Below, one piece after another: positions 3,600 through 58,497 of a stretch of DNA of 64,000 nt. This stretch comes from a virus, in the IMG/VR virus record IMGVR_UViG_3300007775_000001, positions 50,951 to 114,950 of that record, one strand, 5' to 3'. Position 1 is the stretch's first letter, and the number at the start of each line of letters is the position of its first letter. The notes below the pieces were generated by a model. The model had not been told where the DNA came from, ran no database searches, and saw only the letters and a program-made list of their open reading frames with translations. The translations under genes and the position numbers were made by a program.

Positions 3600-3830
3600 A
3601 TGGCAGAACAGGTTGATCGTCCCACCCATTACGGGGGAACAGATTGCATCGAAGCAATGGAGAAGATGCTGTCCAGAGAAGAGTTCATTGGTTTCCTTCG
3701 AGGAACCATCTTCCGATATCAATGGAGATGGCGTCAGAAGAACGGCGAGCAGGATTTGGAAAAGGCTCGTTGGTACGATAGGTATCTCAAGGAGTACATG
3801 CAGAGATGCTCTGAACCAGTTTCTACGTAG
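3600..3830 (+). CDS. DUF3310 family protein (SaV/T7 gp1.7-like)
   Basis: VDRPTHY...CIEAM...GFLRG..FRY.WR...KNGEQDLEKARWY signature. Confidence 0.85.
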   Translation: MAEQVDRPTHYGGTDCIEAMEKMLSREEFIGFLRGTIFRYQWRWRQKNGEQDLEKARWYDRYLKEYMQRCSEPVST

Positions 3831-3834
3831 AAAC
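3819..3834. repeat. dispersed 16-bp palindrome GTTTCTACGTAGAAAC, copy 1
   Basis: Perfect palindrome overlapping stop codon of DUF3310 gene. Confidence 0.95.
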
Positions 3835-3836
3835 CC

Positions 3837-4706
3837 ATGGCTGCCAAGTTTGTTCGCACGACATCCAAGCCAGAGGGCAAGAAACCCTTCGATGTGAAGT
3901 CTCTTCGCTCGAATCGACCAGTGTTCAAGCGTCGGTCTTCTGTTGCGTTGGCGACCTCTCCGGTTCCCAAGCATGGCCCGAAGATTGCTCGCATCGAAGA
4001 CCTGGATGCACTCATGGTTGAGCGTGGTGTTTTGTTTCCGCACGCTTCGATTCGCGATTACCTCATCAATGTGAAGGGGTATTCAGAGAGTCAGTACCAT
4101 ATCTTCATGAAGTTCGCTCCAGCAATGGATTGGGACGAGCGCAAGCGTCTTCTTCAAGACCAGATCACACAGCAACTCGTGGCACGGCACATCGATGGAA
4201 TTGCCGAAGCCCATGATATGTTTCTGAAGGCGTCCAAGCTGGGTATTGGGCGTGCTCTTGAAATGCTTGCTAGGCTTCAGGTGAGCGATGTTCCTGTCGA
4301 GGTGGAAGTTCCCGACTTGAAGAACCCTGGCAAGACCAAGGTGGTGAAGAAGTTCTCCTTGCGGAGCGTTGATCTTCTCAACATCTTGTCTGCTTTGAAG
4401 AGTGCTCAGGAAATCTACCGCAAGGCCATGGGGATTAACGACGAGGAAGACAGCATGGTAAACCTCATGGAGCGGTTCCGACAGACCGTTGGTGCGCAAT
4501 CACGGTTGAACATCACTCAAGTCAACGTCAACTCTGGTGGTGAGTCGAAATCGGTATCTGTCGAGGGTGTTGATTACGATGACGTGAAGCTCATCCTTGA
4601 GGCGTTGCGTCAGGCCAAAACAGAGTCCAAGGATGAAGATGAGGAAGAAGTAGCGGGAGAACTCATCATCCATGGTGATCCTGTCGTGACCAAGGTTGTG
4701 AACTGA
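3837..4706 (+). CDS. putative terminase small subunit
   Basis: Helical protein; DLLNILSALKSAQEIYRKAMGI then LNITQVNVN and an acidic tail, the usual TerS architecture; near ParB/MTase pair. Confidence 0.45.
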   Translation: MAAKFVRTTSKPEGKKPFDVKSLRSNRPVFKRRSSVALATSPVPKHGPKIARIEDLDALMVERGVLFPHASIRDYLINVKGYSESQYHIFMKFAPAMDWDERKRLLQDQITQQLVARHIDGIAEAHDMFLKASKLGIGRALEMLARLQVSDVPVEVEVPDLKNPGKTKVVKKFSLRSVDLLNILSALKSAQEIYRKAMGINDEEDSMVNLMERFRQTVGAQSRLNITQVNVNSGGESKSVSVEGVDYDDVKLILEALRQAKTESKDEDEEEVAGELIIHGDPVVTKVVN

Positions 4707-4720
4707 CTGTCGCCCCCCCT

Positions 4721-4762
4721 CCCCTTGCGTCAGTCCGTGCAACTGACGCAAGGGGTCTTTTT
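4721..4762 (+). terminator. Rho-independent terminator
   Basis: 14-bp stem CCCCTTGCGTCAGT/ACTGACGCAAGGGG followed by TCTTTTT. Confidence 0.85.
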
Positions 4763-4779
4763 GACTCCTCGTTTTCTTG

Positions 4780-4840
4780 TTGACTTCCGCTGTACTCCCT
4801 GTCATACTGTAGTCGTGGGAAGGAAGTGAGAACTCTGAAT
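4780..4840 (+). promoter_or_regulatory. early promoter cassette (divergent copy)
   Basis: TTGACT-17-CATACT then GTCGTGGGAAGGAAGTGAGAACTCTGAA, resembling copies at 5807/13504/24721. Confidence 0.55.
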
Positions 4841-4852
4841 GGAGAGAGGGTC

Positions 4853-5125
4853 ATGAACAGCGCACTGCATGAAGAAAATCACGAGGAGTTTCGAGCGAAA
4901 CTCCAGAGTGAGCGTGACCGGCTCCTTCCTATCTTCAACCGGGTCGCGAATCCGGATGACTGGAAGGCTCCGATCAGCGCATGGGTGGATGCTGCCGAAG
5001 TGGACAACGTCGTGCAAGCAATCGGGTACTTCACGGCAACGGTGGCGAAGGTCGCTTGGGGTCTGAAACCGGGCAAGGCATACGTGACTTCGGTCGGCTA
5101 CAGGGTTGGCCCGGCTGGGCCATAA
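4853..5125 (+). CDS. hypothetical early protein
   Basis: GGAGAGAGG RBS, first gene after promoter. Confidence 0.7.
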   Translation: MNSALHEENHEEFRAKLQSERDRLLPIFNRVANPDDWKAPISAWVDAAEVDNVVQAIGYFTATVAKVAWGLKPGKAYVTSVGYRVGPAGP

Positions 5126-5147
5126 CACGGGAAAAGAGGAGACTCCC

Positions 5148-5330
5148 ATGAAGAATTGTACATGCAAGGGGACGGGAAGACAGAGGGTCTACAACGGGAA
5201 GACCAATTTCACCATTCCTTGCACAACCTGCAAGGGTTTAGGCAAGCTCCCGGTGCGACTGGAGACGGGCAATCTCCAATCGCCGTTGGCGAACGTGCGC
5301 GTCTTCGAGGAAGGAACACAAGTCGGTTGA
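5148..5330 (+). CDS. small CxxCxGxG zinc-finger protein (DnaJ-type repeats)
   Basis: CTCKGTG...CTTCKGLG; GAGGAG RBS. Confidence 0.6.
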   Translation: MKNCTCKGTGRQRVYNGKTNFTIPCTTCKGLGKLPVRLETGNLQSPLANVRVFEEGTQVG

Positions 5331-5342
5331 CAAAGGAGAAAC

Positions 5343-5744
5343 ATGACTGAACCACTGTTCACCGAAGCGGATGTGATCTACGCGGTCAATCTGCGAGACG
5401 TGGTGGAAGACGGCTGGCTGGATGGCAATGCTGGAACGCTTGCACCAATCAGCCGCAAGTTCTTCAAGCATCCGGTGTGGGCTTCTCCGGGTGTGTACAC
5501 GGTGATGGAGAAGGCGGTACAGGAAGATTCGAAGTTCTATACTTTCGAGTCGCTGTGGGCGTACTTCCTATTCCGTACCGTTCGCTTCGCGGAAGACGTG
5601 AATGAATCAACTCGTAAGTTCACGTTCCAGCGTAGGACTGATGGGATGCATCATCGTCCGGTTGAGATCATGGTCTGTGTCCAGGCGTGGGCGGTCGATG
5701 ACCCCAAGCCTGTTGTGACGCTCTATCTCCCGGAGGAAGACTAG
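5343..5744 (+). CDS. DUF6573-like hypothetical protein
   Basis: LF...DVIYAVNLRDVVEDGWLD...PVVTLYLPEED pattern; AAGGAG RBS. Confidence 0.55.
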   Translation: MTEPLFTEADVIYAVNLRDVVEDGWLDGNAGTLAPISRKFFKHPVWASPGVYTVMEKAVQEDSKFYTFESLWAYFLFRTVRFAEDVNESTRKFTFQRRTDGMHHRPVEIMVCVQAWAVDDPKPVVTLYLPEED

Positions 5745-5767
5745 GGGCTCTCTCTCCCCTGCCACGA

Positions 5768-5803
5768 GAGCACTCAGGAGAAATTCTGAGTGCTCTTTTT
5801 TTT
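5768..5803 (+). terminator. Rho-independent terminator
   Basis: GAGCACTCAG/CTGAGTGCTC stem followed by T8. Confidence 0.9.
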
Positions 5804-5806
5804 GCC

Positions 5807-5864
5807 TTGACATCATGTAGTACATGTAGTACACTGTAACTGTGGCTGAGAGAGAAACCCTGAA
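5807..5864 (+). promoter_or_regulatory. early sigma70 promoter cassette
   Basis: TTGACA-17-TACACT with leader GTGGCTGAGAGAGAAACCCTGAA, repeated elsewhere. Confidence 0.8.
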
Positions 5865-5879
5865 TAGAGGAAAGAACCC

Positions 5880-6092
5880 ATGGAACATTATTCACATCTC
5901 ATGAGTGGATGCGCTGCGAAGTTTCCTTTCTGTTACGGTGACTGTGGAGACGATGTGAAGAAAAACGAGAAGACCGGTCGGTGGTATATCACGATGGGTC
6001 ATCCGGGCTTCAATAGCACGGCCAACAACGGTAACGGGTATTCGACCGAAGCCAAGGCTCGCAGTGAACTGAAACGCTACGCACGAGCGTAG
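5880..6092 (+). CDS. hypothetical early protein
   Basis: ORF directly after promoter, GAGG RBS. Confidence 0.6.
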   Translation: MEHYSHLMSGCAAKFPFCYGDCGDDVKKNEKTGRWYITMGHPGFNSTANNGNGYSTEAKARSELKRYARA

Positions 6093-6114
6093 CGTTCTGG
6101 TCGAGAGAGAGATC

Positions 6115-6411
6115 ATGTCAACAACCGTGGCGCAGACGATTCTGAAGCAGTTGGGTGGTGGTCGCTTTGCACTGATGACGGGTGCCAAGGGCTTTACGAG
6201 TACCGGCAACGGAGTGTTCTTCCGGATCGGTCGCAATCATCGAAGCATCAACAAGGTGTCGGTCGATCTGATGGGCGATGACACCTACACCATGAAGTTT
6301 TGTCGTGTGCGCAAGAGCGTGGCAACGGTGGCGAAAGAAGTCAAAGGGCTGTACTTCGATCAGTTGCAAGAGGTCTTCACACGGGAAACTGGGATGTACA
6401 CTCACTTGTAG
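6115..6411 (+). CDS. conserved phage hypothetical protein
   Basis: AQTILKQLGGGRFALMTGAK...DDTYTMKF...GLYFDQLQEVFTRETGMYT, a widespread phage family. Confidence 0.8.
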   Translation: MSTTVAQTILKQLGGGRFALMTGAKGFTSTGNGVFFRIGRNHRSINKVSVDLMGDDTYTMKFCRVRKSVATVAKEVKGLYFDQLQEVFTRETGMYTHL

Positions 6412-6420
6412 GGAAACGAG

Positions 6421-6960
6421 ATGACCAAATATACGAGGTTCCAAGACATCCCTCAGATGGTCGAAGCCGGGAGTTACGAGGTAGACATCCCGTGGGACTA
6501 TTTGGAAAAAGGGCTGGCAGGCTACCTGGAGCAAGGTTTGGTGCTTGAGCCGGACTTCCAGCGTGGTCATGTGTGGAGTGATGAGAAGCGCACGGCATAC
6601 GTGGAGTTCTGTCTTCGCGGTGGTCGTGGAAATCGTACGATCTTCTTCAACTGTCCTGGCTGGCATTCGGTGCGTCGATTGACTGCGGGGAGTTTTGTGC
6701 TCGTAGATGGTTTGCAGCGGTTGACCGCCGTGCGGATGTTCATGAGGGATGAACTGAGAGCATTCGGTTCTTTCTTCAGCGAGTACACGGATCGGATGTG
6801 GTTGTTCGGTCTGTCCGCTTCATTCCGTTTCAACGTCAATCGGTTGGAAACGCGGGCCGAAGTGCTCCGGTGGTATCTGGACATGAACACAGGCGGCGTG
6901 GTGCATGCGGAGAGCGAGCTTGACCGTGTGCGTGAACTGCTCAGCAAGGAGACGGTATGA
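6421..6960 (+). CDS. stand-alone DUF262 (ParB-like, GmrSD N-terminal) domain protein
   Basis: PDFQRGHVWS...VLVDGLQRLTA...YLDMNTGG motifs. Confidence 0.85.
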   Translation: MTKYTRFQDIPQMVEAGSYEVDIPWDYLEKGLAGYLEQGLVLEPDFQRGHVWSDEKRTAYVEFCLRGGRGNRTIFFNCPGWHSVRRLTAGSFVLVDGLQRLTAVRMFMRDELRAFGSFFSEYTDRMWLFGLSASFRFNVNRLETRAEVLRWYLDMNTGGVVHAESELDRVRELLSKETV

Positions 6961-7153
6961 AAGTCAAAGGGCATTTGTTCACGATCAATCAGAACGTCAC
7001 GCAAGGTGATCTGAACCGGCAAGTATATTGAATGTCGGGGTCTGGGTTGCGGCTGAAGCTCAAGGGGAATTCCGTCTTGCAAGAACTGGCTTCTCTGTAG
7101 TGGACATTTTTCGCGCAACGTGGTAGGCTGAATCACAAAACGGGAGATTCCAC

Positions 7154-7708
7154 ATGAAGCAAGAATTGACATTGCGACACTATTTGAAGAGTGTCTCTCA
7201 GCTTGAGAAAGACGAGGAGGTACTTCAAGCTTTGGCCGATGCGGTTATGGGTCTGGAGGCCCATCAGTTTCTTGTCTTCATGGCGCGAGTGAAGGATACC
7301 GTCAAGACGGATGCAGGATACCGCGAATTTATCTCGTCGCTCTTCGGGGGCAAGCGCAAGGTCAATCCGCGCGACGTGACCATCTATATCAAAATAGATG
7401 GTGCGCATGAGACCACTCATAACAAGATCAGTGCGATAAAGCATTGTCGTGCAGTGACGTATGGCGAGAACATGGGTTTGGTCTGTGATCCTGACAGGAT
7501 GGGTCTAAGGGAGGCCAAAGACCTCGTGGAAGCGTCGAAGATGGGTGAGGTCAAGGTCGTTCGGCTTTCTGGCAAGGGAGCCAAAGAGGCTTCCGTCCAG
7601 TTTGCGAACAATATCATGGCGTGTGGATATGACGTTCGCGTCGAGGGTGGGGACGAGGAGTATGAGAGCGAAGTCGATGACTTCATTGCGGAGCTAAAGG
7701 CACTCTGA
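7154..7708 (+). CDS. ribosomal protein bL12 (L7/L12)-like protein
   Basis: KISAIKHCRAVT...MGLREAKDLVEA matches bL12 CTD K..VIK.VR..TGLGLKEAKDLVE. Confidence 0.7.
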   Translation: MKQELTLRHYLKSVSQLEKDEEVLQALADAVMGLEAHQFLVFMARVKDTVKTDAGYREFISSLFGGKRKVNPRDVTIYIKIDGAHETTHNKISAIKHCRAVTYGENMGLVCDPDRMGLREAKDLVEASKMGEVKVVRLSGKGAKEASVQFANNIMACGYDVRVEGGDEEYESEVDDFIAELKAL

Positions 7709-8067
7709 TGACACGAGAAGAAAACGACAAGCGGGAACGCCAGATCAGATGTGTACGTAAGATGCTGGTCACCCTAGACCAGTTGTTGACTAGGAATACG
7801 TTCGATCAGGCTGAGAAGCATTACTATGGCCGCAAGAATGAGATTGTTGGCGGTGGCAACAACAGTATTTTTACGGGTTTGCGCAACGCTGCGTTTAGTG
7901 GTCAGCCATTCTACAAGTTCTCAGACGGTCAGACTGAGGTGGCTTATGACTATCTGGATGAACGATTGGTGCTCGTGAATCCCAGCAAGCCTGACATGGA
8001 AGAGCGTCTGAAGAGAGACGGGGCCATGTTCGTTCCGCTCGTGGAACTGATCAAGAAGTCGAGCTAG
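7708..8067 (+). CDS. hypothetical protein
   Basis: Coupled ORF (TGATG overlap). Confidence 0.65.
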   Translation: MTREENDKRERQIRCVRKMLVTLDQLLTRNTFDQAEKHYYGRKNEIVGGGNNSIFTGLRNAAFSGQPFYKFSDGQTEVAYDYLDERLVLVNPSKPDMEERLKRDGAMFVPLVELIKKSS

Positions 8068-8082
8068 TTTCTACGTAGAAAC
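8067..8082. repeat. dispersed 16-bp palindrome, copy 2
   Basis: AGTTTCTACGTAGAAACT at gene junction. Confidence 0.95.
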
Positions 8083-8084
8083 TC

Positions 8085-9083: not shown

Positions 9084-9084
9084 C

Positions 9085-9396
9085 ATGGTCTTTGGAATGA
9101 GAGACGCGGTTGAAAAGGAAACGAGAGACATGGCTGCTCATGAGCCGATCTTGATGAGTTCTTACATCGTGCGTCTCATTGAGGCGTATAGTGATCATCC
9201 GGCGGCGGCTGCCCAAACCATAAGCGATTTGAGATGTGCATTGGATGCTCAGTTGGCTATGGAGCTTTGGTTATTACGAGATGGATACGATTCGGCAACC
9301 GGAATCAAGCTCGATCTGAAAACGGGCAAGCCGGTCGCTGCACCAAGAAGAGGGCCAACAGCAATTGACATCCTAGCGGAGCTTGATCAGCTATGA
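9085..9396 (+). CDS. hypothetical protein with DxxxELxxL C-terminus
   Basis: Coupled ORF ending IDILAELDQL. Confidence 0.65.
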   Translation: MVFGMRDAVEKETRDMAAHEPILMSSYIVRLIEAYSDHPAAAAQTISDLRCALDAQLAMELWLLRDGYDSATGIKLDLKTGKPVAAPRRGPTAIDILAELDQL

Positions 9397-13503: not shown

Positions 13504-13561
13504 TTGACATTGTGTAGCACATGTAATACACTATAACTGTGGCTGAGAGAGAAACCCTGAA
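13504..13561 (+). promoter_or_regulatory. early sigma70 promoter cassette
   Basis: TTGACA-17-TACACT with GTGGCTGAGAGAGAAACCCTGAA, near-identical to 5807. Confidence 0.8.
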
Positions 13562-17565: not shown

Positions 17566-17651
17566 GGAAGGATGGCTGAGTGGCCGAAAGCACCGCATTG
17601 CTAACGCGGCGGACGCAAGTCCCGTGAGTTCGAATCTCACTCCTTCCGCCA
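17566..17651 (+). tRNA. tRNA-Ser(GCT)
   Basis: Class II; TT-GCT-AA; encoded CCA. Confidence 0.9.
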
Positions 17652-17667
17652 ATTTCTACGTAGAAAC
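17652..17667. repeat. dispersed 16-bp palindrome, copy 3 (1 mismatch)
   Basis: ATTTCTACGTAGAAAC immediately after tRNA CCA. Confidence 0.9.
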
Positions 17668-19622: not shown

Positions 19623-19659
19623 AACGGTGGCGGGCGGGATGAGTCTCGCCCGCTTTCAT

Positions 19660-19732
19660 GTTGCGATAGCTCAGTCCGGTAGAGCGGTGGGTTGAAGCCC
19701 CATATGCAGAGGTTCGATTCCTCTTCGCAACA
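19660..19732 (+). tRNA. tRNA-Phe(GAA)
   Basis: TT-GAA-GC. Confidence 0.9.
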
Positions 19733-19733
19733 C

Positions 19734-19762
19734 TTGACAAACGGTAGCACATGTAGTACAGT
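19734..19762 (+). promoter_or_regulatory. sigma70 promoter sharing the cassette spacer
   Basis: TTGACA-17-TACAGT with GTAGCACATGTAGTACA. Confidence 0.65.
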
Positions 19763-25472: not shown

Positions 25473-25488
25473 GTTTCTACGTAGAAAC
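25473..25488. repeat. dispersed 16-bp palindrome, copy 4
   Basis: GTTTCTACGTAGAAAC, intergenic. Confidence 0.95.
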
Positions 25489-30340: not shown

Positions 30341-30787
30341 ATGTCTTCCTATCTTCCTCCTGCGAGAGAACGGTTGCGGAATCTTGTGGCAACGTGTGTA
30401 AGGCATGGTGACTTCACACTGAGAAGTGGTCAGAAGAGCGATACGTTCATTGATCTTGAGGAGGTGTCTAGCACTTCATTGTTCATGATTCTCTTTCTGG
30501 ATGTGCTCAGGGAGATCGTGCGAGGCGATGTGTATGACACCTTCATTGGCCCGTCGAAGGGTGCTGATCCTCTCGTCTATGTTGGACGAGAGGGTATCAG
30601 GAACAGGCGGGGGACAAGAGCGATTGTGTTGGAAGACGTGTTGACAACGGGTGGATCGGTGCTTCGTTGTATCGAAGAGTCCGGAATGACCCCTGTGCGG
30701 ATTGTTTCAGTTGTGGACAGAGGGTGTTCGGTTGAGCTACCCGCTCCCTATACCCCAATCCTGTCTATTGGCGAAATTTCTACGTAG
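30341..30787 (+). CDS. orotate phosphoribosyltransferase-like protein (shortened)
   Basis: GDFTLRSGQKS..FID and PRPP loop IVLEDVLTTGGSV...VVDR. Confidence 0.8.
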   Translation: MSSYLPPARERLRNLVATCVRHGDFTLRSGQKSDTFIDLEEVSSTSLFMILFLDVLREIVRGDVYDTFIGPSKGADPLVYVGREGIRNRRGTRAIVLEDVLTTGGSVLRCIEESGMTPVRIVSVVDRGCSVELPAPYTPILSIGEIST

Positions 30788-30791
30788 AAAC
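30776..30791. repeat. dispersed 16-bp palindrome, copy 5 (1 mismatch)
   Basis: ATTTCTACGTAGAAAC overlapping stop codon. Confidence 0.9.
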
Positions 30792-30805: not shown

Positions 30806-31060
30806 ATGGCGCGCGGGAATGTGGTCTGGTTCGATATCCAGAAGGGTTTTGGATTCATCACAGACGAGGCTCAAGGGGACGATGTATTTGTCCACTACTC
30901 GAAGATCGAGGGGCCAGAAGGTGAGTTCAAATATCTCGATGCTGGAGACCTTGTGGAGTTCGAGCGGTTTGAGGTGGACAGAGGTAATGGCCTGAAGAAA
31001 CCTCAAGCGAAGAACGTAAAGCTTGTCAGCCGCCGCGAAACCACAAAGGGCGACAAGTGA
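30806..31060 (+). CDS. cold-shock domain protein
   Basis: RNP1 KGFGFI and RNP2 VFVHYS; PQAKNV. Confidence 0.93.
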
Positions 31061-31752
31061 GATCAGAGATCGTGAAGTGGATTCGGATTGTTGTTTTCAG
31101 GACGGTGAAGGGAAAGGGGTTGATCAATCTTGACATTGACAACCTCATCTCCGCCGGATATCTGGGTTACGCTCAGGCGTTGAAGAACTACGATGAGCGT
31201 AAGAAGGTCAAGTTCAAGACCTTTGCTGAGTATCGCATCAAAGGCGCGGTACTTGACGAGGTTCGACGTGTGATCGGTGACGAGCGGTGTAAGACGGAAA
31301 GGCCAGTTAGGGTCAATGATGTCGATTTCGAGATGATCATTGATCCTCGTGACTATGGTTGTGAGTTCGAGATCGATTTCGAGAAGTTCATGGATGCGTT
31401 GCCGATGACTGTCCGTGAGAAGAACATTCTCCGATCACGCATTCAGGGTATGAGCCTGAAGGAGATCGGACAGCAGTTTAGGTTCAGCGAATCCCGTGCT
31501 TCTCAGATTCTCTATAGCATCCGTGTGAAGGCTGCACCAACGTTCGAGCGATTTTTTGGAATCAAGGTGGTGGTTGCACCAAGATTTCGCAAGTATCGGC
31601 GTACCTCGTCCGATAATGGAGTGAGGAGATTCCCGTGGAATCTGGCGTTTGCCGATATGTGTCGGCGCAACAGGGTGGGGCGAATCATTTCAATTCGGTC
31701 GCACCAATTCCCAATCCAACCTCTCCCTTGGCTTAGAGCGAGCGGTCAATGA
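31057..31752 (+). CDS. phage sigma70-family factor, FliA/WhiG-like
   Basis: [12 protein letters not shown]...YD.....[18 protein letters not shown]; region 4 [17 protein letters not shown]. Confidence 0.88.
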
Positions 31753-39869: not shown

Positions 39870-42800
39870 GCAGTTTCTACGTAGAAACTGAATCTGTTTC
39901 CAAGGGTGGTCGAGAGGTTGCTTCCGTTGCGGTGATGAGCGGGTCGAATCTCTTGATGGGCCGCCGCAAGGATTCTGGCGAGTGGACTTTGCCGGGCGGT
40001 GGATTGGAACCGGGCGAGAAGCCCGAAGAAGGGGCCAAGAGGGAGCTTTTTGAGGAGGCAGGGGTCAGGGTAGGGCAGCTCCGATATCTGGGCTCCAGGC
40101 GCGTTAAGGGCGTTCCTGATAACGATCTGATCACGGTGCATGCCTTCCTGGTGCATCAACATGGGAAGGCAACTGTCCGAAACGATCCTGACAAGGAAGT
40201 GAGCCGGTGGTCATGGATCGATGTGAGCAACGGTCTTCCGAAAGCGATTGAAGATGAACTTCACTCCCCACGGAACGTGGTTCTCATGATGATGGGTATT
40301 CAGAAAGAGCCAAAACCGTCCCTGGTGATTCGATCTGACCTGGGGCCTATCGACCTATCCAAGATGTATGGAGGAGGGGTTGGAGAGGCTTCTGACAGCG
40401 AATTTGGTACCTATTCTGGCGGTGGTGGGAAAAAGCCGGGTGGCCCTGGTTCTCGCGGTGGAAAGGTGATCGGACGTACACGGTCTGGGAAACCGATCTA
40501 CGAGAGCGCATCCCATTATGGTCACAACAGCTTCTTTGCGGAAGAGCATCTTCAGGCTGCTGAAGCGCACAAGCATCATGCAGGGAGTTTGCTTGAACAC
40601 ATGAAGGGCAACCTTCATGGGAATACTTCGAATTTCAAGACGCTGATGGGCAAGATTGAAGCCCACATGACTGAGGCCGATGAGCATCGGAAGAAAGCTG
40701 GAACCGCTCCAAAAGCTCCCCGCAAGAAGGCCGAGCCGGCCAAGAAGGAGTATCGCTATGCAGCTTCCGTATTCGATGATTCGGATATCATCAAGAGTCT
40801 GGAGGCCATAGTTAAGCATGTCGAAAAGCCCGGTTCTCGTGGTGGTCATATCATCGCCTGGAGAGATGGCGAACCGATTTATGGAAAGGAGCAGCCAAAA
40901 GTTAAACGTAAGGTGGCTAGTGCTACAGTCAAATACACAACAGCATTGAGTCCTAGTGGGAAGAAAGAAAACGTGGCTGTTCATTTGAATCCATCCGCTG
41001 ATGATTTGGCTGAACATATTCCAGCCGGTGCAAGAGCGTGGCTTCTGCCGGGTGGAAATTTGTATGTCATGGACAACAAGAATATTTTGCATCTTTCTGC
41101 TATCGAGTCTGTGATGAATTCTGGATTCATCACCAAGCAGCAATTCAGAGATATCATCCCGCCAAAGAGTTTCTTGAGTGATACCGATCCTTCTGAGGGT
41201 ATCATGTTGGAGAGAGTTGGTAATTCCAATATGTTTGTGTTGGGTGAATCTTATGAAGGCGGTGTTCCGGAGGGTGATGAGCTATCTGACATCAAGGATT
41301 CGATCAGAGCTTTCAAGAAAAATTCAAAAGGCGTGATCATCCGGCCAAGTAGTATTAGAGATTTCAATGTCGAAGACTACTTGCATATGAGCTTCGATCA
41401 AGAAGAATTTGATCTGTGGAAGGCGGATGATAAGATGATTTCCACTCCCCAGAAGGGGATGGTTAAAAAGCATGAACATCTTGTCCGCGTCCCGAAGACA
41501 CCAAGCCATATGAGCTTTTTTGTGAAGGCTGCTCCAGGAGAAGTCCGCCCTGGTCACAAGTATTTGCGACGGTACAGACGGAATGATCAGTGGGTATACG
41601 TCTATCGCGAGCCAGAAGGTGATACCCGTGAATTGAACGAGGAGGCTATGTCGCTTCTTCACCATCTTGCGGCGCGTGGTGACGAAGATGCCACGTATCT
41701 TCTGAACAACCTGAAAGAGAAAGCGGCTGACGAGGTTCTTGATCGTGAGTTGAATGGCACGGAACGTCATGATGTTGTGCAGATGATTCGGAACAGTCTC
41801 GATCAGAATGTGTTCCGATATTTGAATCAGTATACTACGAGCCCGTTCCATCAAACGCTCACACGGAATCGTGTGACGTTGGATTCCGTGATGTCTCAGG
41901 TTCAGGGACAGACATTGCGCGGTCTGCTGACAAGTTATCACAACGCCCTGCGAGATGTGGATCGGGCTCATTCGACATTGCAGATCACGAGTTCTCAGAA
42001 CACTGATGCTCGCGGTGCGGGTGGTTATGCAAATCTTGCGTACAACAGAGCCTTGCAGGCGTTGGAGACTCGTACTGCGTTCTTGCCAGCGCGCTATTCC
42101 GAAGTCCATCGGAGAGGTACACGGAGCGGTTCGAATGATCTTGAACCGTTTGTGAACACTCAAGAGATACGAGAAGCCGCTGAGCGCCAAGAGCGAGAGC
42201 GTCAAGCTGCCGAAGCTGAACGCGAACGACAAGCCGCTGAAGAACGCGAGCAGATCATGGGTGAGTATCGCACCAAGATGACCGGTGCGATCATCGATCA
42301 TCTTGATCCTAGCGTTCATGTTTCTCCTGACAAGATTGCGACCATCCATCGTGCTCTGAAGAACATGTTCGGTGGCAATGTTCCTACACGGGAACAGTGG
42401 CCTTACGACTTTTCACAGTATGGGTACAGGGTCAAGATTTCTGATGTGGCCGCTGACAACAATACCATCTCGTTCGCACTGAGCGCGACCAACGCTTCTG
42501 GAGAGCAAGTCACTCGTTCATGGCGTCGGAATTGGCGGAACAACGGTGGTCATCCAGCGATCTACAACGCGCTCCTGGAGACCTATCCATCCGCTCGTGG
42601 GACTGGCCCTGAGATTGGCGAGTTGATCAACAAGGCTCAGAACAAGTTGATGCATGAGACCGATCCTGACCATGGTGTGATTGGAGTCTTCGCTGCAATG
42701 ACAGTGGGTGGCTACAATTGGGCCAATCAGGGCTTCAGATTTGATCGGGCAAGTGGTGATCGTGGTGTGGTTTTGATGCAGTTTAGGAACTTCCTGGCTG

Positions 42801-44954: not shown

Positions 44955-47240
44955 ATGCCAAGAGGAACCCACAAGTACATTCGACGCGAAGGCACTTCGG
45001 GCAACTATCGCTACTTCTATTCCGATGCTCAAGGTCGGGAGAAGCCAGCGACGGACGAGAAGCATCGGAATGCTGTTCGCGATCACATTCGCCGTCTGAT
45101 CATTCATTTTCTTGGTCAAGGCGCACGGCCAAACTCAGAGGTGATGCAGCAAATTGCGAACGAGGTGGGCGTTTCTGTCCGTACGGTCTGGGACAATCTT
45201 TCCAATATGCGTCAACGTGGTTCGCGGCGTGTGCGTAGGAATGAAGTGTCTGCGGCTGGTCAAGACTTGGCTGCATGGGGTCACGATTACGATACGCATC
45301 ATATCAGTGAGGCGGGATCGAGTGTTGGTTCTGCGATGAATCAAGAAGCTGTTGATCGTGCTCGTGGAGTTGAACGGGCTTCTTCCAGACCAACACCAGA
45401 AAGGGTGCGTGCAAACAGGGTAGCTTCCCAGCAGCCCGGTTGGTCTCAGGTCAATGATCTTGCTACGTTTCGCACCAAGGCCAGTACGAGACCCGGTTTG
45501 CGTTTCGGTTTTTTGAACGAGCACGGCGATCCGTCTCTATATCAGGTGACGGGTGTCGTGCCCACTGGTATTTCCGTCAGCATCGTTCAGAATCCAGTCG
45601 ATCCAAGTCGTGTTGGACACGTAGGGGATATCCACAACAATTACCTGAGCACGGTGATTTCAGAGGGTCGGCTTGGTATTCCCGATACTCAAGAAACACC
45701 ATCAACACCTCCTCAGATTGAAAGGGAAGCGCAAGAAGCTGAACCTTCTGATGAGGGTTCTCCCGCTCCACATGTGACGGGCCTGACACAAACTCTGTCT
45801 TATTGGCTCAATCTTGATCGTAGGGCGAGAAGCACATCGGCTGTAACGAGTGCTCATGAATGGAGTCGGTTGGCTCGTAACTATGAGCTTGAACTCAACT
45901 ATGCGGCTGATGTTTTGAAGGATAATAACATCTCTCGTTGGAGAGATGTTCGGGCAACGGCTGGGATCATTGGCTCGTTGATGAGTGGTAGTCATTCGGT
46001 CGGTGACAAGGCGGCTGCACTCAACAATGCTCGCGTGCAGTTGAGATGGGCTTCTGGTGCTGTCTATGCAATCCGTTCTGCTCGTGGCGAGCGGGGCAAT
46101 GATCGGAGTCTTCGCAGTTTGACGGGTAAATCTGTGGAAGTTGTGCGGCCTGCTCTTCGAGACAATGATCTTGTGGTTCTGCCGAGTGGCGTTGTCGCTG
46201 AGATTCAGAACCATGATGACAGGGGTTTCACGGTTCGCACTCAATACGATCCGGGTGGCGCTCTTCCTCAGACGATTGAAGTTCGTGGAAGTTTGGTTGA
46301 GCAGATCGCGTCTGGTTCGTATCTCCATGTGAAATCATCGCGTGAACCAATTCCTGTTGTTGAAGCAGAGAGCAGGCGGACGCGCCGACCAAATCTTGCT
46401 CTGGGTAACAGAGTGAGAACACGGACGGGTCAGACCGGAACTGTTGTATCCATGCATCGCAATAACGAGAATACGGGGTGGGGTGGTGCCCACGTGGCAT
46501 GGGACTCTTCTCCCGATAATCCCGTGTATGTGAATGCCTCTGGATTGCGACGGATGGAGCATAGCAGACCGTCTTCAACTGATCCGCGACCCGAAACTCC
46601 TGAGCTTCAGAGCACTTTCGAGCAGAGAATCCGTGGCTCTCATGGTCGAAGCGAGAACACTTTCCAACTAGACACGAGTCGAATGGAAGGTGCAAGACAT
46701 GGTGGTTTGCACACTGGAACCTATCAAGTGTTGTATGTTCATGGAGGAACAGTAACGCTTGGTATTCCTAATGGTGGACAGCATTCCATTCCGATCACGG
46801 AACTTGACAGGATGAGAAGGTCTGGTGCGACTTTCAGATTCGCACCGGTTAGAGGTCAACACGACTACTTTACAAGTGCATACAATCCGGTTCCATTGCA
46901 GCGTGTGGGTGCTGAGCCGCCCCCAAGACATGCACCAACTGCTGACCCACATCCTGCACATCGTCCTGAGAATGCAGCGGGCGAGGTTGCTGCTTCTCCG
47001 ATTGCCGGAACGCCTGCTGAGATTAGAGAAAGGTTGCGACGTGAACACGGGATCGATCTTGATCGTGTGACACGACATCGCTTCGGAATCAATCGCTCGT
47101 TCATTGTCGAGGAGAAACAAACTCTTCGGAAGGGACGTGTGCTGTTGGTCGTTGACAAGGATGCCGAAGAGGCTGATGGATTTCAAAGTCTGATTCACGA
47201 GAGAACTCATGACTTGCGATCTTACGTGTCGGTGCGGTAA
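44955..47240 (+). CDS. modular protein: HKYIRR motif, HTH and SH3/KOW-like domains
   Basis: QQIANEVGVSVRTVWDNLSNMRQRG (HTH); LGNRVRTRTGQTGTVV (SH3-like). Confidence 0.7.
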   Translation: MPRGTHKYIRREGTSGNYRYFYSDAQGREKPATDEKHRNAVRDHIRRLIIHFLGQGARPNSEVMQQIANEVGVSVRTVWDNLSNMRQRGSRRVRRNEVSAAGQDLAAWGHDYDTHHISEAGSSVGSAMNQEAVDRARGVERASSRPTPERVRANRVASQQPGWSQVNDLATFRTKASTRPGLRFGFLNEHGDPSLYQVTGVVPTGISVSIVQNPVDPSRVGHVGDIHNNYLSTVISEGRLGIPDTQETPSTPPQIEREAQEAEPSDEGSPAPHVTGLTQTLSYWLNLDRRARSTSAVTSAHEWSRLARNYELELNYAADVLKDNNISRWRDVRATAGIIGSLMSGSHSVGDKAAALNNARVQLRWASGAVYAIRSARGERGNDRSLRSLTGKSVEVVRPALRDNDLVVLPSGVVAEIQNHDDRGFTVRTQYDPGGALPQTIEVRGSLVEQIASGSYLHVKSSREPIPVVEAESRRTRRPNLALGNRVRTRTGQTGTVVSMHRNNENTGWGGAHVAWDSSPDNPVYVNASGLRRMEHSRPSSTDPRPETPELQSTFEQRIRGSHGRSENTFQLDTSRMEGARHGGLHTGTYQVLYVHGGTVTLGIPNGGQHSIPITELDRMRRSGATFRFAPVRGQHDYFTSAYNPVPLQRVGAEPPPRHAPTADPHPAHRPENAAGEVAASPIAGTPAEIRERLRREHGIDLDRVTRHRFGINRSFIVEEKQTLRKGRVLLVVDKDAEEADGFQSLIHERTHDLRSYVSVR

Positions 47241-47427
47241 CAAGCTGGCGAAGTCTCAGAACGGTGAGGTCAAACTTCGCGTCAAGCTCGTGAAGTGGAA
47301 CCGCAACGGGATGTTCGCTGTATGCAAGTCGTGCGGTGACGATGTTTCCGTGGATGTCGAATTCTTGAAGGGGCTGGAGTCTAGCTTTGCCTATGAGGTG
47401 GAAGCTCACTCTTCAGTTTCTACGTAG
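47209..47427 (+). CDS. small zinc-ribbon protein
   Basis: CRCGNKLAK...VCKSCG. Confidence 0.7.
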   Translation: MTCDLTCRCGNKLAKSQNGEVKLRVKLVKWNRNGMFAVCKSCGDDVSVDVEFLKGLESSFAYEVEAHSSVST

Positions 47428-47431
47428 AAAC
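47416..47431. repeat. dispersed 16-bp palindrome, copy 7
   Basis: GTTTCTACGTAGAAAC overlapping stop codon. Confidence 0.95.
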
Positions 47432-49956: not shown

Positions 49957-49992
49957 AACGGCTGGATTCATTAAGGTGCAAGGAGAACAACG

Positions 49993-51468: not shown

Positions 51469-51477
51469 ATTGAACTG

Positions 51478-51505: not shown

Positions 51506-51527
51506 TCACCACGATTGGGAGATGATC

Positions 51528-51902: not shown

Positions 51903-51907
51903 TCGCC

Positions 51908-52249: not shown

Positions 52250-52258
52250 GTTGACCCC

Positions 52259-52480: not shown

Positions 52481-52483
52481 CCC

Positions 52484-54000: not shown

Positions 54001-54006
54001 GTGGTC

Positions 54007-54807
54007 ATGGGTTTGGTCTCTGTACAAGCGAAGCTTGATGACAAGGGAATTGACCTTGATCTGTGGGATTCTGCAACGGTAGAGGGGTTCCATCGTGGTA
54101 TCGCTGGGATTGCTCAGGGAGCCCATGCAGAATGGATGAGAATTGCACAGAACAGATTGCGTACCTCTCGCGCGATCTACATCAACGGTCTGCAACAGGC
54201 TGAATCATTCACGACGCAAGTGGTCGGAACGACTTCGGTCTTCGAGATCACGTTGGTAGGTCGCATGCCGAATGCCTTTGAGTTTGGCATGCCAGCATTC
54301 GATATGAAAGAAGTGCGTCCAGGGTGGTTGGGTGGACGTAGAGCGAAGACAGCATCGGATGGTCACAAGTACATTGTGATTCCGTTCAGACACTCTCTCA
54401 CGAGTGGGGCTTCGTTGGCCTATTCTGGGAAGGCTCGACGGGAAGATGTCATTTCGAATCTGAAAGATGTGGTCAGGAAATATGGGTTGAACAAGATGGT
54501 ACGCGGCCCCGGTGGTAGGGTGCTAACAGGCCCGGTCAAACGGCTCCCTCCTGGACAACCGAATGTGCATCGTTTCCTTGAAGGATTGACTCGCGTACAG
54601 GATCGGGTTGCTGGACGCACACCGTCTGGAAAGGAAAAGGGTTCTGGTCAACTGATGACGTGGCGGGTGATGTCGGACAAAAGTCCGCCCGGTTCCTGGG
54701 TTCATCCAGGATTGACAGCGGCGAACATCATGCCAGAGGTTGAAACCTGGATTGATGGTCAGTTGGGCAAGATCATTAACGAGATGTTTACAGCGGGAGT
54801 GCTCTGA
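54007..54807 (+). CDS. neck/tail completion protein
   Basis: DG.KYIVIPFRH...TWRVMSDKSP..SW.HPG. Confidence 0.7.
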   Translation: MGLVSVQAKLDDKGIDLDLWDSATVEGFHRGIAGIAQGAHAEWMRIAQNRLRTSRAIYINGLQQAESFTTQVVGTTSVFEITLVGRMPNAFEFGMPAFDMKEVRPGWLGGRRAKTASDGHKYIVIPFRHSLTSGASLAYSGKARREDVISNLKDVVRKYGLNKMVRGPGGRVLTGPVKRLPPGQPNVHRFLEGLTRVQDRVAGRTPSGKEKGSGQLMTWRVMSDKSPPGSWVHPGLTAANIMPEVETWIDGQLGKIINEMFTAGVL

Positions 54808-55517
54808 TGGCTCAGGTTCAAGAAACACCTCCTACATATGGTGTCTATCCTGTTGACTTCATCCTGGAGTCTGTTCTTAACACTGGTCTTGCATGGTTTC
54901 GTACAGACGCCACGGCGAAAAACAAGGTGTTCGGTCATCTTCTTGATTCGATCCTTGTAGCTGGTCGGTATGGACAGACAAAGATCGATGAGATTGGTGC
55001 GTACATCAACAACAATAGGATCAGGGTTGTGCAGCATTGGGGTCAGGTCGCACAGAACACGCCATGCTTCTCAATCCAGTTGCTTGATGGGAGGGAAGAT
55101 CAGCGATACGTGGGCATGGCTGATCACGATGACGATCTGGACACCATTGATGATGTGACAAACGAGGTGGTTGCCAGAGAGGGAATCCTATACTCTCCAA
55201 TTTCGGATCAGATTCAGATCGGCATTCATTCGCATGACACACCAGACCTCGCGAAATACCTGTACTATCTTGCTGTCTACATCCTGGAAATCTACAAGCC
55301 AACACTGGAAGCTGGTGGTCTCGAATTGACCACATTCCAGGCGACTGACCTCTCACGGATCAACGAGTACCTTCCCGAAAATATCTTCTCCAGGTTCATC
55401 AACTATTCGATCCTGACGTTTCCAAAATTCAGTGGGTCTGCCGATACGATTATCACAGCCATTGAAGCGTATTCAGCTTCCGAAGGCGGCGGTATCTCAT
55501 TTGACACTGGAGGCTGA
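54807..55517 (+). CDS. putative tail terminator
   Basis: Position before sheath; coupled. Confidence 0.55.
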   Translation: MAQVQETPPTYGVYPVDFILESVLNTGLAWFRTDATAKNKVFGHLLDSILVAGRYGQTKIDEIGAYINNNRIRVVQHWGQVAQNTPCFSIQLLDGREDQRYVGMADHDDDLDTIDDVTNEVVAREGILYSPISDQIQIGIHSHDTPDLAKYLYYLAVYILEIYKPTLEAGGLELTTFQATDLSRINEYLPENIFSRFINYSILTFPKFSGSADTIITAIEAYSASEGGGISFDTGG

Positions 55518-55879
55518 TGATGGCACGCGGACAATTTTCGAGGAAAGACAAGTCGCCTGACCAGACTTCCGATAAGGGGACTGAAGGGGTTCAAGCTCAA
55601 GACGCGGAGAAACCCGTGAGCGAAGAGAAAGTTTTCTCTGTGGAAGAGAAGATCAAGGCGATCAAGAAGTCTGAAATGCCGGAAGAACAGAAGCGTGAGT
55701 ACATTGCTACTCTGACCAACGCTGGTTCTCCTCCGAAGGATGCGGTTCCCCTGAACGTCTACTTCAGGTTGAGGAGAATTGTCCCAGCATTTCATGATTC
55801 GATGCGGGCATATAAGAACGCCAAGGGTGTATCCGTGGCTACACCGGCCCAATGGGACGAGATTTTCAAGGGCTTCTAA
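55517..55879 (+). CDS. hypothetical protein
   Basis: Small gene preceding sheath. Confidence 0.6.
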   Translation: MMARGQFSRKDKSPDQTSDKGTEGVQAQDAEKPVSEEKVFSVEEKIKAIKKSEMPEEQKREYIATLTNAGSPPKDAVPLNVYFRLRRIVPAFHDSMRAYKNAKGVSVATPAQWDEIFKGF

Positions 55880-55894
55880 CGAGGAGAGCCGTAG

Positions 55895-58030
55895 ATGTCG
55901 ATCAAGATCACGTTCAATGGTGCCACGATCATCCATCCTGGTGCCTACTCCAAGACAGTTGTGGAGAACCTGACTGGCTTTCCTCTCCAGGCTACCGGTA
56001 TCGTAGGTGTCATCGGTGAAGCTCCTGGTGGAGAGCCCCGCGTTCTCGATATTTTGACGAGAGATCAGATTCAAGCGGCGAAGTCGCGCTACAAGTCAGG
56101 TGCGATTGCTGATTGTCTTGATCTGCTTGCCGCTCCTGGCAACGACGTTCGAGTTCCGAATGGGGCCAGTCAGATCGTCGTATACAAGACCAATCTGAGC
56201 ACAAAGTCTCAAGCTTTTCTTCAGAATGCTGTGCCTGCGAATGTGCTTCAGATTGATTCTGTCAATTGGGGAGTGGATGAGAACAATACAAATCTGTTGG
56301 TATCTGCTGGTCAGGTGGCGGATGCGGACGCGGTGATCGAGGGTACGATTGCTGGCCCATTCACATTGTCTGGCGGTGAGACTCTGATTTTGGATATCAA
56401 CGGGGTGACGTATACCTTCACCAATACGCTCACTGGCGCGACTGTTGTTGCGGACATGGTGACGGAACTGAACACAGATGCGCGGTGGTCTCCTGCTACC
56501 GCTCCGGTGACAGCGGCACTCAACACGCTGGGGACGGGTGTCAAGATCACTATCGATCCGGTTGTGGTGACAGGTGGAGAACTGGACTACGGATATATCA
56601 GTGTCGATGCCACATCGACTATTGACACGATTCTGGGTATCACGGGAACCAATCGTGGTGTGAAGGGCTCTCGTCTGATCACTGTGACCAGGGGTACAAC
56701 TGTCGAAGATATCCCAGAGGTCGGCAATCGTGAATCGATGACCGTGAAGTATGTTGGTGCAGGCACAAGCTGCTTGCTCGATATCCAGGATATCGCTGGT
56801 GAACGGCGACTTCAAACCACTGTGACCGGTGTGGGTGCAGATGATTTGGATTTGTTGCTCGTGGACAGTCAGGGTGTGAACCAGTTCACAGTGCAAGAGC
56901 TTGTTGACCAGATCAATGCTCTTGCAGCGTACGAGGCGACAGTCCTTGACACCAATCCGGATCGGAACGTTGGCGAGCTTGACTACTACAACAATCTGGA
57001 AGTCATCGATGTGGCTGGTGTGATTTACAGTGACATTGCTGACACAATCGAACAGGTCAATCTCATTAGTCAACTGGTCACAGCGACGGCAATTTCGAAC
57101 GCTGTCCGGGCGATTGCAACCTTCTCGACAGTCAAATTCTTGACGGGTGCGGTAGATGGCTCTTCGGTGAACTCCGATTGGGTGACCGGTCTGGCTGCGT
57201 TCGAACAGATTCGGATCAACAGTATCGTGCCCCTGATCAGTGCTGACAAGGGCTCTCTGACTATCGATTCGATCAATGCTGCTGTGAAGACCCACGTCAC
57301 AAAGATGTGGGGAACTCTCGGTCGCTCTGAGCGTCAAGCTTTTCTTTCCAAGCTTGGCACCAAGACGGAACTCAAAGATGCGGCCAAGACACAGAACAGT
57401 GCCTATTGTTCGATGTTCGGGCAACAGGTGCGGGTGTTTGATCGGTTCGGTGACCTGCAATGGAAAGACCCGTGGGCGTTGGCTTGCATTGCAGCCGGTG
57501 TTCGCTCCGGTACAGATGTGGGCGAGCCGCTGACATACAAGGTCATCAACGTCAACGATGTTCGAGTCAATGACTCGTCCTGGAATCCGAAGACTGATTT
57601 TGTCGAGATGTTGGATTCCGGAGTCACCATCGTTGAACCTCTGGATACGGGCGGTTTCAGAATCGTGCTCGACAACACAACGTACGGTGTTGATGCCAAC
57701 TTTGTCTGGAACCGTGGCTCTGTGGTTGAGGCTGGTGGCTATGTGGCCTACGATCTACGGTACAACCTGGAGCTTGTGTTCACTGGCACAAAGGCGAGAA
57801 CAGGAACCGCCGAAGCGATCAGGAATTTCATCATTGCTCGCATGACCATCTACCTGAACGCGGACATCATCGTTGGAGATGATTTGAACGATGGTCTTGG
57901 CTTCAAGAACCTGTCGGTGAGCATCAACGGGAGCACGGCGACGATCAATATGGCGATCACGCCGGTTCAGGGTATCGACTTCTTGTTGCCCACCCTGTAT
58001 CTCCAGAACATCCAGCAAACCGCTGCGTAA
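55895..58030 (+). CDS. tail sheath protein
   Basis: F.G..IIHPGAYS...VIGEA.GG.P; GEPLTYK; GFRIV.D.TTY. Confidence 0.92.
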   Translation: MSIKITFNGATIIHPGAYSKTVVENLTGFPLQATGIVGVIGEAPGGEPRVLDILTRDQIQAAKSRYKSGAIADCLDLLAAPGNDVRVPNGASQIVVYKTNLSTKSQAFLQNAVPANVLQIDSVNWGVDENNTNLLVSAGQVADADAVIEGTIAGPFTLSGGETLILDINGVTYTFTNTLTGATVVADMVTELNTDARWSPATAPVTAALNTLGTGVKITIDPVVVTGGELDYGYISVDATSTIDTILGITGTNRGVKGSRLITVTRGTTVEDIPEVGNRESMTVKYVGAGTSCLLDIQDIAGERRLQTTVTGVGADDLDLLLVDSQGVNQFTVQELVDQINALAAYEATVLDTNPDRNVGELDYYNNLEVIDVAGVIYSDIADTIEQVNLISQLVTATAISNAVRAIATFSTVKFLTGAVDGSSVNSDWVTGLAAFEQIRINSIVPLISADKGSLTIDSINAAVKTHVTKMWGTLGRSERQAFLSKLGTKTELKDAAKTQNSAYCSMFGQQVRVFDRFGDLQWKDPWALACIAAGVRSGTDVGEPLTYKVINVNDVRVNDSSWNPKTDFVEMLDSGVTIVEPLDTGGFRIVLDNTTYGVDANFVWNRGSVVEAGGYVAYDLRYNLELVFTGTKARTGTAEAIRNFIIARMTIYLNADIIVGDDLNDGLGFKNLSVSINGSTATINMAITPVQGIDFLLPTLYLQNIQQTAA

Positions 58031-58043
58031 CGAGTGAGGTGAC

Positions 58044-58457
58044 ATGTCCAGGGTGATGACAGGTGCGAGAGCCATTTTCCGTATTAATGGAACCAAGGTC
58101 GCTCTCGCCAGCCAATGCACGTACAACGAGGCTATCCAACTGGAGCCCGTGAACGTGCTGGATCAACTCGAAGTCGAAGAGTACGCTGAAGTTGGGTACA
58201 CCGTCGATCTTCAGTGCCAAGCGTTTCGCGTTCAGAATCAGTCCGTGAAACAGCTTGGGATCATGCCCAAGCTCAACGCGATTCTCACATCTGGCGAGAT
58301 GACGGCTGAGATCATCGACCGTGTTACCAATTCCGTCATCCTTTTGATGGAAGGTGTGAAGATGGAGAGCCGTCAGAGCACGGTGGATGCTCGTGGTGTG
58401 ATGACCGAAACATGGACTTTCAGAGGTATCAAGTCTTCCGACGAGGCGGGTGCGTAG
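58044..58457 (+). CDS. tail tube protein
   Basis: 137 aa directly after sheath; VMTGARA...NG..V. Confidence 0.85.
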   Translation: MSRVMTGARAIFRINGTKVALASQCTYNEAIQLEPVNVLDQLEVEEYAEVGYTVDLQCQAFRVQNQSVKQLGIMPKLNAILTSGEMTAEIIDRVTNSVILLMEGVKMESRQSTVDARGVMTETWTFRGIKSSDEAGA

Positions 58458-58481
58458 AGCGGGTGATTGATAGATTGACCA

Positions 58482-58497
58482 GTTTCTACGTAGAAAC
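58482..58497. repeat. dispersed 16-bp palindrome, copy 8 (20-bp perfect)
   Basis: CAGTTTCTACGTAGAAACTG, intergenic. Confidence 0.95.

Follow-up and report, generated by a model that had tools for sequence, protein, structure and literature searches.

Palindromes matching a Burkholderiaceae plasmid parS are dispersed through the genome of an uncultured soil phage

The genome of an uncultured soil phage, represented by the 114,950-bp IMG/VR record IMGVR_UViG_3300007775_000001 (g0 or G000 below), contains a dispersed array of 13 copies of a short palindrome whose 16-bp form is identical in sequence to a plasmid centromere of the Burkholderiaceae. The sites are conserved in related phages, they are spaced more evenly than chance would place them, and we found neither a cognate ParB nor a ParA encoded by the phage. 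Bacterial chromosomes and plasmids typically use parS, together with the protein that reads it, ParB, as their centromere. By its sequence identity and its context, we take the phage motif to be a plasmid-type parS. The reading that we favor, with somewhat less than even confidence, is a form of centromere mimicry in which the sites are of the parS type and ParB is supplied in trans by a replicon of the host. A resident replicon is the most likely source of ParB because the phage encodes neither a ParB with a helix-turn-helix nor a ParA. The window that we studied is a stretch of 64,000 bp, bases 50951 to 114950 of the record, and coordinates of g0 features below are positions in this window.

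The array and its match to plasmid parS

A pattern search of the window for the 16-mer GTTTCTACGTAGAAAC returned eight matches, at 3819, 8067, 17652, 25473, 30776, 39873, 47416, and 58482, which are the same eight positions that a first-pass annotation of the sequence had listed. Six are exact, and the other two, at 17652 and 30776, start with A, as that annotation had marked them. Shuffled sequences gave an expectation of 0.01 matches, and none of 100 shuffles reached 8. Over the whole genome, there are 13 copies of an invariant 14-mer, TTTCTACGTAGAAA, 10 of which are exact 16-mers and 3 of which carry a single mismatch at position 1 or 16. No further copies occur in the genome at 2 or 3 mismatches, and isolated half-sites number only 2; the match quality of the sites is all-or-none. 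The termini of the record overlap by 123 bp, and on a circular map the 13 gaps measure 4.2 to 13.6 kb, with a coefficient of variation (CV) of 0.34 versus 0.90 for random placement. The evenness of the gaps has a P value of ~1e-4 against uniform placement and likewise against random choice among gene junctions, and the largest distance of any base from a site is ~6.8 kb. The first-pass annotation had called for a count and a spacing check beyond the window, and in both respects the pattern holds for g0 as a whole. Its statement that the motif has one extra base per half compared with bacterial parS was mistaken: both are 16-bp palindromes around a central ACGT, and they have four of eight half-site positions in common.

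When IMG/VR was searched for the 16-mer, the matches were to relatives of the phage and to a single unrelated entry, a 40,474-bp circular element (G007). This element has three exact 16-mers inside 1 kb, two of them 26 and 120 bp upstream of parA and one within parB, and its genes include those for a Rep3 initiator, KfrA, a 218-amino-acid (aa) ParA, and a 344-aa ParB with both ParB_N and HTH_ParB domains. Homologs that are 48 to 77% identical to the G007 ParB carry annotations as partition proteins on replicons of Cupriavidus, Ralstonia, Burkholderia, Paraburkholderia, and Pandoraea. We inspected five plasmids, namely, pHA4-1 and p71.9 of R. solanacearum and plasmids of B. cepacia ATCC 25416, B. 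multivorans, and B. thailandensis. Each of them has 2 to 7 copies of the 16-mer, perfect or one base off, within a few hundred bases upstream of parA, often with an extra copy ~190 bp into parB, and the ParBs of these plasmids are only 48 to 64% identical to that of G007. The 16-mer is thus repeated beside the parAB operon in six of the six replicons inspected, G007 included. The suggestion in the first-pass annotation that the palindrome is a parS-type site is borne out to this extent, with exact 16-mers repeated at ParABS loci of Burkholderiaceae plasmids.

The same association was seen in a scan for the exact 16-mer in one genome for each of 185,579 species. Sixty-two stretches contain it, and the 16 stretches with multiple copies all belong to the Burkholderiaceae (Paraburkholderia, Burkholderia, Cupriavidus, and Candidatus Burkholderia); the single-copy stretches in other taxa are consistent with chance. 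A ParB of the G007 type is encoded beside the sites, in the same 8-kb stretch, in 12 of the 16 multicopy cases, and in the other 4 the sites lie at the edge of the stretch. In four such bacteria, with genomes of 5.6 to 8.7 Mb, the 14-mer is essentially confined to that one cluster. As a control, applying the same palindrome screen to B. cenocepacia pBcp895-1 recovered the experimentally validated parS-G4, ATCTCCACGTGGAGAT, on the upstream side of parA.

Sites of this kind have been studied in the Bsr partition families of Burkholderiales, in which the centromere is a palindrome of 16 bp that has T-rich ends and CG at its center (Pillet et al. 2017, PMC5450999). The phage motif, GTTTCTAC|GTAGAAAC, shares this length and symmetry, the T-rich arms, and the CG in the middle; its 6-bp core consists of 2 T, 2 A, 1 C, and 1 G, versus the 2 C, 2 G, 1 A, and 1 T stated in that study. 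In the supplement to the same work, parS of plasmid 1 of R. pickettii 12D (parS12D) is GTTTCAACGTTGAAAC, with a binding score of 42 for its protein, ParB12D. The phage motif differs from parS12D by one symmetric change, at positions 6 and 11 only, and is present there as the mutant probe S85, which ParB12D did not bind (score of 5). A probe altered at positions 1 and 16 (ATTTC...GAAAT) was still bound (score of 28), and the positions at which ParB12D tolerates change are the ones that vary among the phage copies. Because ParB12D fails to bind the 16-mer (score of 5 versus 42), the phage motif would define a specificity class separate from parS12D. In the literature, we found no binding assay for a cognate ParB of this class. 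The phage motif is, letter for letter, the site upstream of parA in a sister ParB family, that of the Burkholderia, Paraburkholderia, Cupriavidus, and Ralstonia plasmids. The arrangement is another matter: the plasmids pack 2 to 7 copies into less than ~1.5 kb next to parAB, whereas the phage spreads 13 copies every 4 to 14 kb without parAB, and its sites, unlike Bsr-type parS, are not grouped near a par operon or origin.

Specificity within this ParB group appears to be variable. A 1.8-Mb Ralstonia megaplasmid (L327) and a 2.5-Mb Cupriavidus replicon (L328) encode ParBs that are 45 to 49% identical to that of G007, and their sites are CTTTCAGCGCTGAAAG, in 2 to 3 copies flanking parA; because these replicons use CTTTCAGCGCTGAAAG, ParBs as similar as the motif-sharing ones can differ in specificity. 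The B. cepacia ATCC 25416 plasmid (L145) has 2 exact and 5 one-mismatch copies of the phage motif upstream of parA, at 2079 to 2786 of the sequence inspected. Two of the one-mismatch copies, GTTTCAACGTAGAAAC, join an arm of the parS12D type to an arm of the phage motif and look like intermediates between the two specificity classes. As for G007 itself, a reverse transcriptase gene of the kind found in group II introns (L141, 8597 to 10102) lies directly upstream of its parS-parA region. IMG/VR lists the element as viral, and Cupriavidus contigs of near-identical size (~40 kb) carry ParBs that are 67 to 77% identical to its own.

Conservation and turnover of the array among related phages

The array is shared by relatives of g0, in three lineages that differ in the motif used. 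Lineage A comprises g0, with its 13 copies, the 108-kb phage G001 (g1; GC content of 45%), with 6, and the fragments L138, L052, L019, and L071; all have the 14-mer core TTTCTACGTAGAAA, extended to the 16-mer GTTTCTACGTAGAAAC with variation at positions 1 and 16. In lineage B, represented by the complete 110-kb phage G413, there are 8 copies of ACTTCTACGTCGAAGT, which is slightly asymmetric and occurs in both orientations. Lineage C, comprising g6 and g417 (GC content of 58 to 60%), has 6 copies of CTTCACCGGTGAAG. Within lineage A, the 14-mer is unchanged between phages with ~70% identity in the capsid protein and GC contents of 45% versus 52%, and the sequences flanking it are unrelated.

Several sites occupy the same places in different lineages. 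The junction after the tail tube gene has a site in g0, g1, L071, and L140 and the lineage-specific variant in G413. A spot within dnaE, the gene for the replicative polymerase, has a site in g0, where it encodes FYVE, in G413, where the different motif of that phage also encodes FYVE, and in g417, where it reads F-T-G-E in frame, the codon position in g417 being derived from tblastn coordinates and not from an alignment. The start of a 1289-aa gene of the virion region has a site in g0, g1, and L019, at the same position and in the same FYVET frame in the latter two, and in g417 of lineage C the site is just upstream of the orthologous gene. Because site positions are kept across lineages with different motifs, the array is old and has been retuned as a whole. 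This retuning cuts both ways, as it fits a protein-site pair encoded by the phage and, equally, the tracking of different host replicons.

Some further observations concern these relatives. The asymmetric sites of G413 fall into two blocks of 4 by orientation, an arrangement that is not significant (P of ~0.03 to 0.11). The complete 103.9-kb phage g415 and the phage g414 have no dispersed palindrome; repeated 12-mers that had been considered as possible arrays in these two turned out to be tandem repeats. Those of g415 have a 42-bp unit and lie at the two ends of the contig (1 to 130 and 103822 to 103921), and g414 has 8 tandem copies of an 11-bp unit (1955 to 2035). The dnaE ortholog has 1425 aa in the g1 lineage versus 1087 aa in g0 (L024, 4445 to 8755; G001, 78348 to 82625), and the interruption of ~1 kb in the tblastn match suggests an intein or other insertion in the g1-lineage gene.

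Candidate readers of the sites

The phage genome offers little that could read such sites in the manner of a plasmid partition system. The phage has a contractile tail, a GC content of 52%, 28 tRNAs, and replication genes for a DnaE-type polymerase, DnaB, a DnaG-like primase, and an SbcC-like protein. Its nearest cultured phages are SPO1-like Bacillus phages, with ~40% capsid identity, and a megablast search against GenBank phages gave no match. We found no tyrosine integrase in the phage. The HTH_ParB domain (PF17762) had no match in g0 or its relative G001 at an E value of ≤1, and ParA (PF13614) had no match in either genome in a search that does detect the ParA of G007. No homolog of the G007 ParB was found by phmmer among the six-frame open reading frames (ORFs) of g0 and G001, and a hidden Markov model built from 86 plasmid ParBs gave a weak N-domain match in these ORFs and nothing else.

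In the centromere mimicry that we favor, the 16-mer would be a site for a dimeric ParB of the kind found on secondary replicons and plasmids of Burkholderiales, and the 13 phage sites would be read by the ParB of such a replicon resident in a Burkholderiaceae host. At every site, ParB dimers may load in the manner of the CTP-dependent clamps known from plasmids. ParB spreads over several kilobases, and on the phage DNA the clamps could spread over the whole molecule, a coverage that the even gaps (13.6 kb at most, with no base farther than ~6.8 kb from a site) would fit. The phage DNA might in this way become a body resembling a partition complex, which could be positioned or segregated by resident ParA (for example, in a nonintegrated carrier state) or could be condensed or shielded. 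The array would then serve segregation or genome organization. That ParB binds, where it comes from, which host is infected, and what the phage gains are inferences. Should a host or plasmid ParB indeed load on the sites, phages and plasmids would be seen to interact in a new way, the host of this uncultured phage clade would be expected among the Burkholderiaceae, and the array would serve as a natural test of the distance that ParB clamps travel from where they load. The idea is directly testable, as the cognate ParB genes are present in sequenced strains and the site has 16 bases. In our literature search, we found no description of a lytic phage with a dispersed plasmid parS and no phage with an evenly spaced, conserved array of the exact centromere of a plasmid family but without its ParB and ParA; a search for the 12-mer core returned unrelated papers only.

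A fuller version of this idea is more speculative, and we offer it as a doubtful possibility. A clade of ~110-kb soil myoviruses of the virulent type may write the parS of a host replicon into its genome at regular intervals, even within dnaE and a virion gene, and may retune the array as the target ParB changes, so that the resident ParB-CTP clamp, perhaps with ParA, coats, positions, or partitions the phage DNA. A ParB_N-methyltransferase of the phage might dock on these clamps through N-domain contacts and ride along.

Several points weigh against a ParB provided by the host. Reliance on the protein of an accessory replicon would be a risky strategy for a phage. The GC contents of the phage and its relative, 45 to 52%, are far below those of Burkholderiaceae genomes, and a capsid search in 400 Burkholderiaceae genomes yielded two matches at 33%, which are uninformative about the host. 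The even spacing is significant in g0 only (P of 0.13 in g1; CV of 0.82 in G413). The sister lineages use different palindromes at the same positions, and such a concerted change would also be expected of a phage-encoded protein together with its sites. No plasmid counterparts were found for the motifs of lineages B and C: among 401 Burkholderiaceae genomes there were scattered matches and no clusters, scans of IMG/VR returned multiple copies only in the phages themselves, and four more par loci had other palindromes. These searches had low power because the parS family of the phage motif is itself present in well under 1% of species.

The main rival, which is possible although we think it unlikely, is that the sites form a genome-wide operator or loading array for a dimeric DNA-binding protein encoded by the phage, as in KorB-OB, P1 C1, and the CIR sites of phiC31, with a specificity that coincides with plasmid parS or was copied from it. 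Three lineages keep orthologous sites (after the tail tube gene, at FYVE in dnaE, where the 1289-aa gene begins, and ~300 bp 5' of the ParB_N gene), each with its own palindrome, and this pattern is the signature of a coevolving protein-site pair carried by a phage; the failure to find plasmid counterparts of motifs B and C points the same way. However, an identity of 16 of 16 bases with a plasmid centromere that is conserved across ParBs of 48 to 77% identity would hardly arise by chance, and the phage encodes no HTH_ParB and no homolog of the DNA-binding part of plasmid ParB. When the presence or absence of g0 proteins in relatives was compared with that of the array, only five weak, unannotated candidates emerged.

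Other dispersed arrays are known. On the IncP plasmid RK2, a short palindrome, the KorB operator OB, is similarly scattered about a dozen times (12 OB sites) around the replicon, and it is read by KorB, a CTP clamp of the ParB family that acts at a distance. RK2 encodes KorB, however, and many OB sites are at promoters, whereas the phage is without a helix-turn-helix ParB and its sites lie apart from its clear sigma-70-type promoters and their terminators. N15, a temperate phage whose prophage is a linear plasmid, encodes SopA and SopB and has four dispersed sopC-like centromere sites. As in g0, copies of a plasmid-type centromere are scattered among phage genes and are not clustered, but in g0 we found no ParA, no cognate ParB, and no tyrosine integrase, and it has 13 evenly spaced sites. 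Temperate phages also carry dispersed repressor sites, such as the stoperators of L5, the C1 operators of P1, and the CIR sites of phiC31, which are read by the phage's own repressor and control lysogeny. These resemble the array in that many identical short sites occupy short intergenic gaps across all modules; they differ in that we found no such repressor or lysogeny module in g0, and its sequence is that of a plasmid centromere.

The phage does have a gene with a ParB domain, at 1409 to 2131 (with its true start at ~1409), and the first-pass annotation had linked the sites to it. Binding of the sites by this protein, whether or not the adjacent methyltransferase takes part, now seems improbable. 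The AlphaFold model of the protein (mean pLDDT of 88) contains a genuine ParB N-domain fold, which matches CTP-bound ParB N-domains with a Z score of 10.4 and a root mean square deviation (RMSD) of 1.9 to 2.4 Å over 90 to 93 residues, and a site lies 260 to 340 bp upstream of the gene in g1, in L052, and, with the motif of its own lineage, in g417. Other features are unlike those of a partition-type ParB: GNH(L/R)L stands in place of the GERRxR CTP box, Pfam HTH_ParB has no match, and the C-terminal part is acidic, poorly conserved, and modeled as long helices, in which no clear helix-turn-helix bundle is seen. Overlays extended through the DNA-binding domain have RMSDs of 5.8 to 7.8 Å, and a degenerate helix-turn-helix may be present. 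Nor does the protein track the motif. The ParB_N domains of g1 and G413 (53% identity) and of L052 and g417 (57%) go with different motifs, while those of g0 and g1 (34%) go with the same one. Two phages with no array, g415 and g414, have the gene as well, a result of the co-occurrence check that the annotation had itself proposed, and g0 and G413 have no site near the gene. On these grounds, we dropped the 1409 protein as the main binder.

A different role for the 1409 protein is suggested by its homologs, as all eight of the long ones tested are fusions to N6_N4 DNA methyltransferases. The next gene in g0, at 2095 to 2856, encodes a CcrM-like N6/N4 methyltransferase and overlaps the 1409 gene by 37 nucleotides (nt) in a different frame. 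In g417, the ortholog is a single 431-aa ParB_N-methyltransferase fusion, and in g1 the best methyltransferase match is ~14 kb from the ParB_N gene; the module is split or fused depending on the lineage. The 1409 protein is thus best described, from its sequence relationships, as the ParB N-domain module of a DNA methyltransferase. This corrects a shortcut, in that a "ParB" gene in such phages can be an N-terminal methyltransferase module and not the reader of the sites.

Least probable of all, in our estimate, is that the motif works as RNA, forming a hairpin for attenuation, 3'-end stabilization, or processing between genes, an alternative that the annotation had also raised. Of the 13 sites, 12 do fall within transcribed junctions or right where a gene begins. 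Yet the hairpin would have a weak stem (−3.2 kcal/mol), a U tract is absent from most sites, the A at position 1 of the variant copies yields an A-C mismatch, and the 4-nt loop is itself palindromic, which an RNA function does not require. The asymmetric motif of G413 would form two different loops in transcripts because it lies in both orientations within plus-strand genes, and an RNA function leaves the identity with plasmid sites upstream of parA unexplained. What still speaks for it is that g415 and g414 have ordinary G+C-rich hairpins at the tail tube junction in place of a site and that a permissive terminator scan accepts one site. We favor a mode in which a dimer recognizes the palindrome as double-stranded DNA. 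We rejected the palindrome as an ordinary promoter or terminator of the phage, as clear sigma-70 promoters and strong terminators lie elsewhere.

Those signals belong to the early region, where promoters of the form TTGACA-17-TACACT directly follow strong intrinsic terminators. In four places (4721 to 4808, 5766 to 5835, 13504 to 13532, and 19629 to 19762), terminators are followed within ~10 to 80 bp by near-consensus TTGACA-17-TAC(A/C)(C/G)T, and none of these pairs (4721/4780, 5766/5807, 13504, and 19629/19734) coincides with a palindrome. From their sequences, the pairs appear to delimit discrete early units that would be read by a host polymerase of the sigma-70 type independently of the palindromes.

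Placement of the sites and neighboring genes

About 93% of the phage genome is open on the plus strand, and 11 of the 13 sites are in or at gene junctions. The first-pass annotation had placed all of its sites there, which is right for most; the exceptions are the site at 39873, inside the 1289-aa ORF, and one outside the window, inside dnaE, both of which are read in the frame F-Y-V-E-T. None of the eight window sites is assigned a strand. As the annotation had noted, three of them supply a TAG stop codon. The site at 3819 to 3834, an instance of GTTTCTACGTAGAAAC, provides the stop of the ORF at 3564 to 3830, and the ATG of a 289-aa gene is 2 nt downstream; the site at 30776 to 30791, with A at position 1, provides that of the 148-aa gene at 30341 to 30787; and the site at 47416 to 47431 provides that of the 72-aa gene at 47209 to 47427, with protease, scaffold, and capsid genes downstream. 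The first and third of these ORFs end in VST and the second in IST.

The remaining sites are placed as follows. At 8067 to 8082, the first base of an exact 16-mer is the end of the upstream 119-aa gene, and the ATG of a 332-aa gene is 2 nt farther on. The variant at 17652 to 17667 (ATTTC...GAAAC, with A at position 1) begins right after the tRNA-Ser(gct) gene, which occupies 17566 to 17651 in a region of 28 tRNA genes, so that the site starts at the very next base. The exact 16-mer at 25473 to 25488 is intergenic, 21 nt past a 113-aa gene. The site at 39873 to 39888 makes up codons 3 to 8 (S-F-Y-V-E-T) of the 1289-aa virion-region gene, and the site at 58482 to 58497 is directly 3' of a 137-aa gene resembling those for tail tube proteins. 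After the site at 30776, there is a gene for a protein like cold shock proteins (30806 to 31060; phrog_729, E value of 8e-12), followed by a sigma factor-like gene (31057 to 31752; phrog_351, E value of 2e-11). The product of the latter is 55% identical to its g1 ortholog and may serve this phage clade as its late-gene sigma factor.

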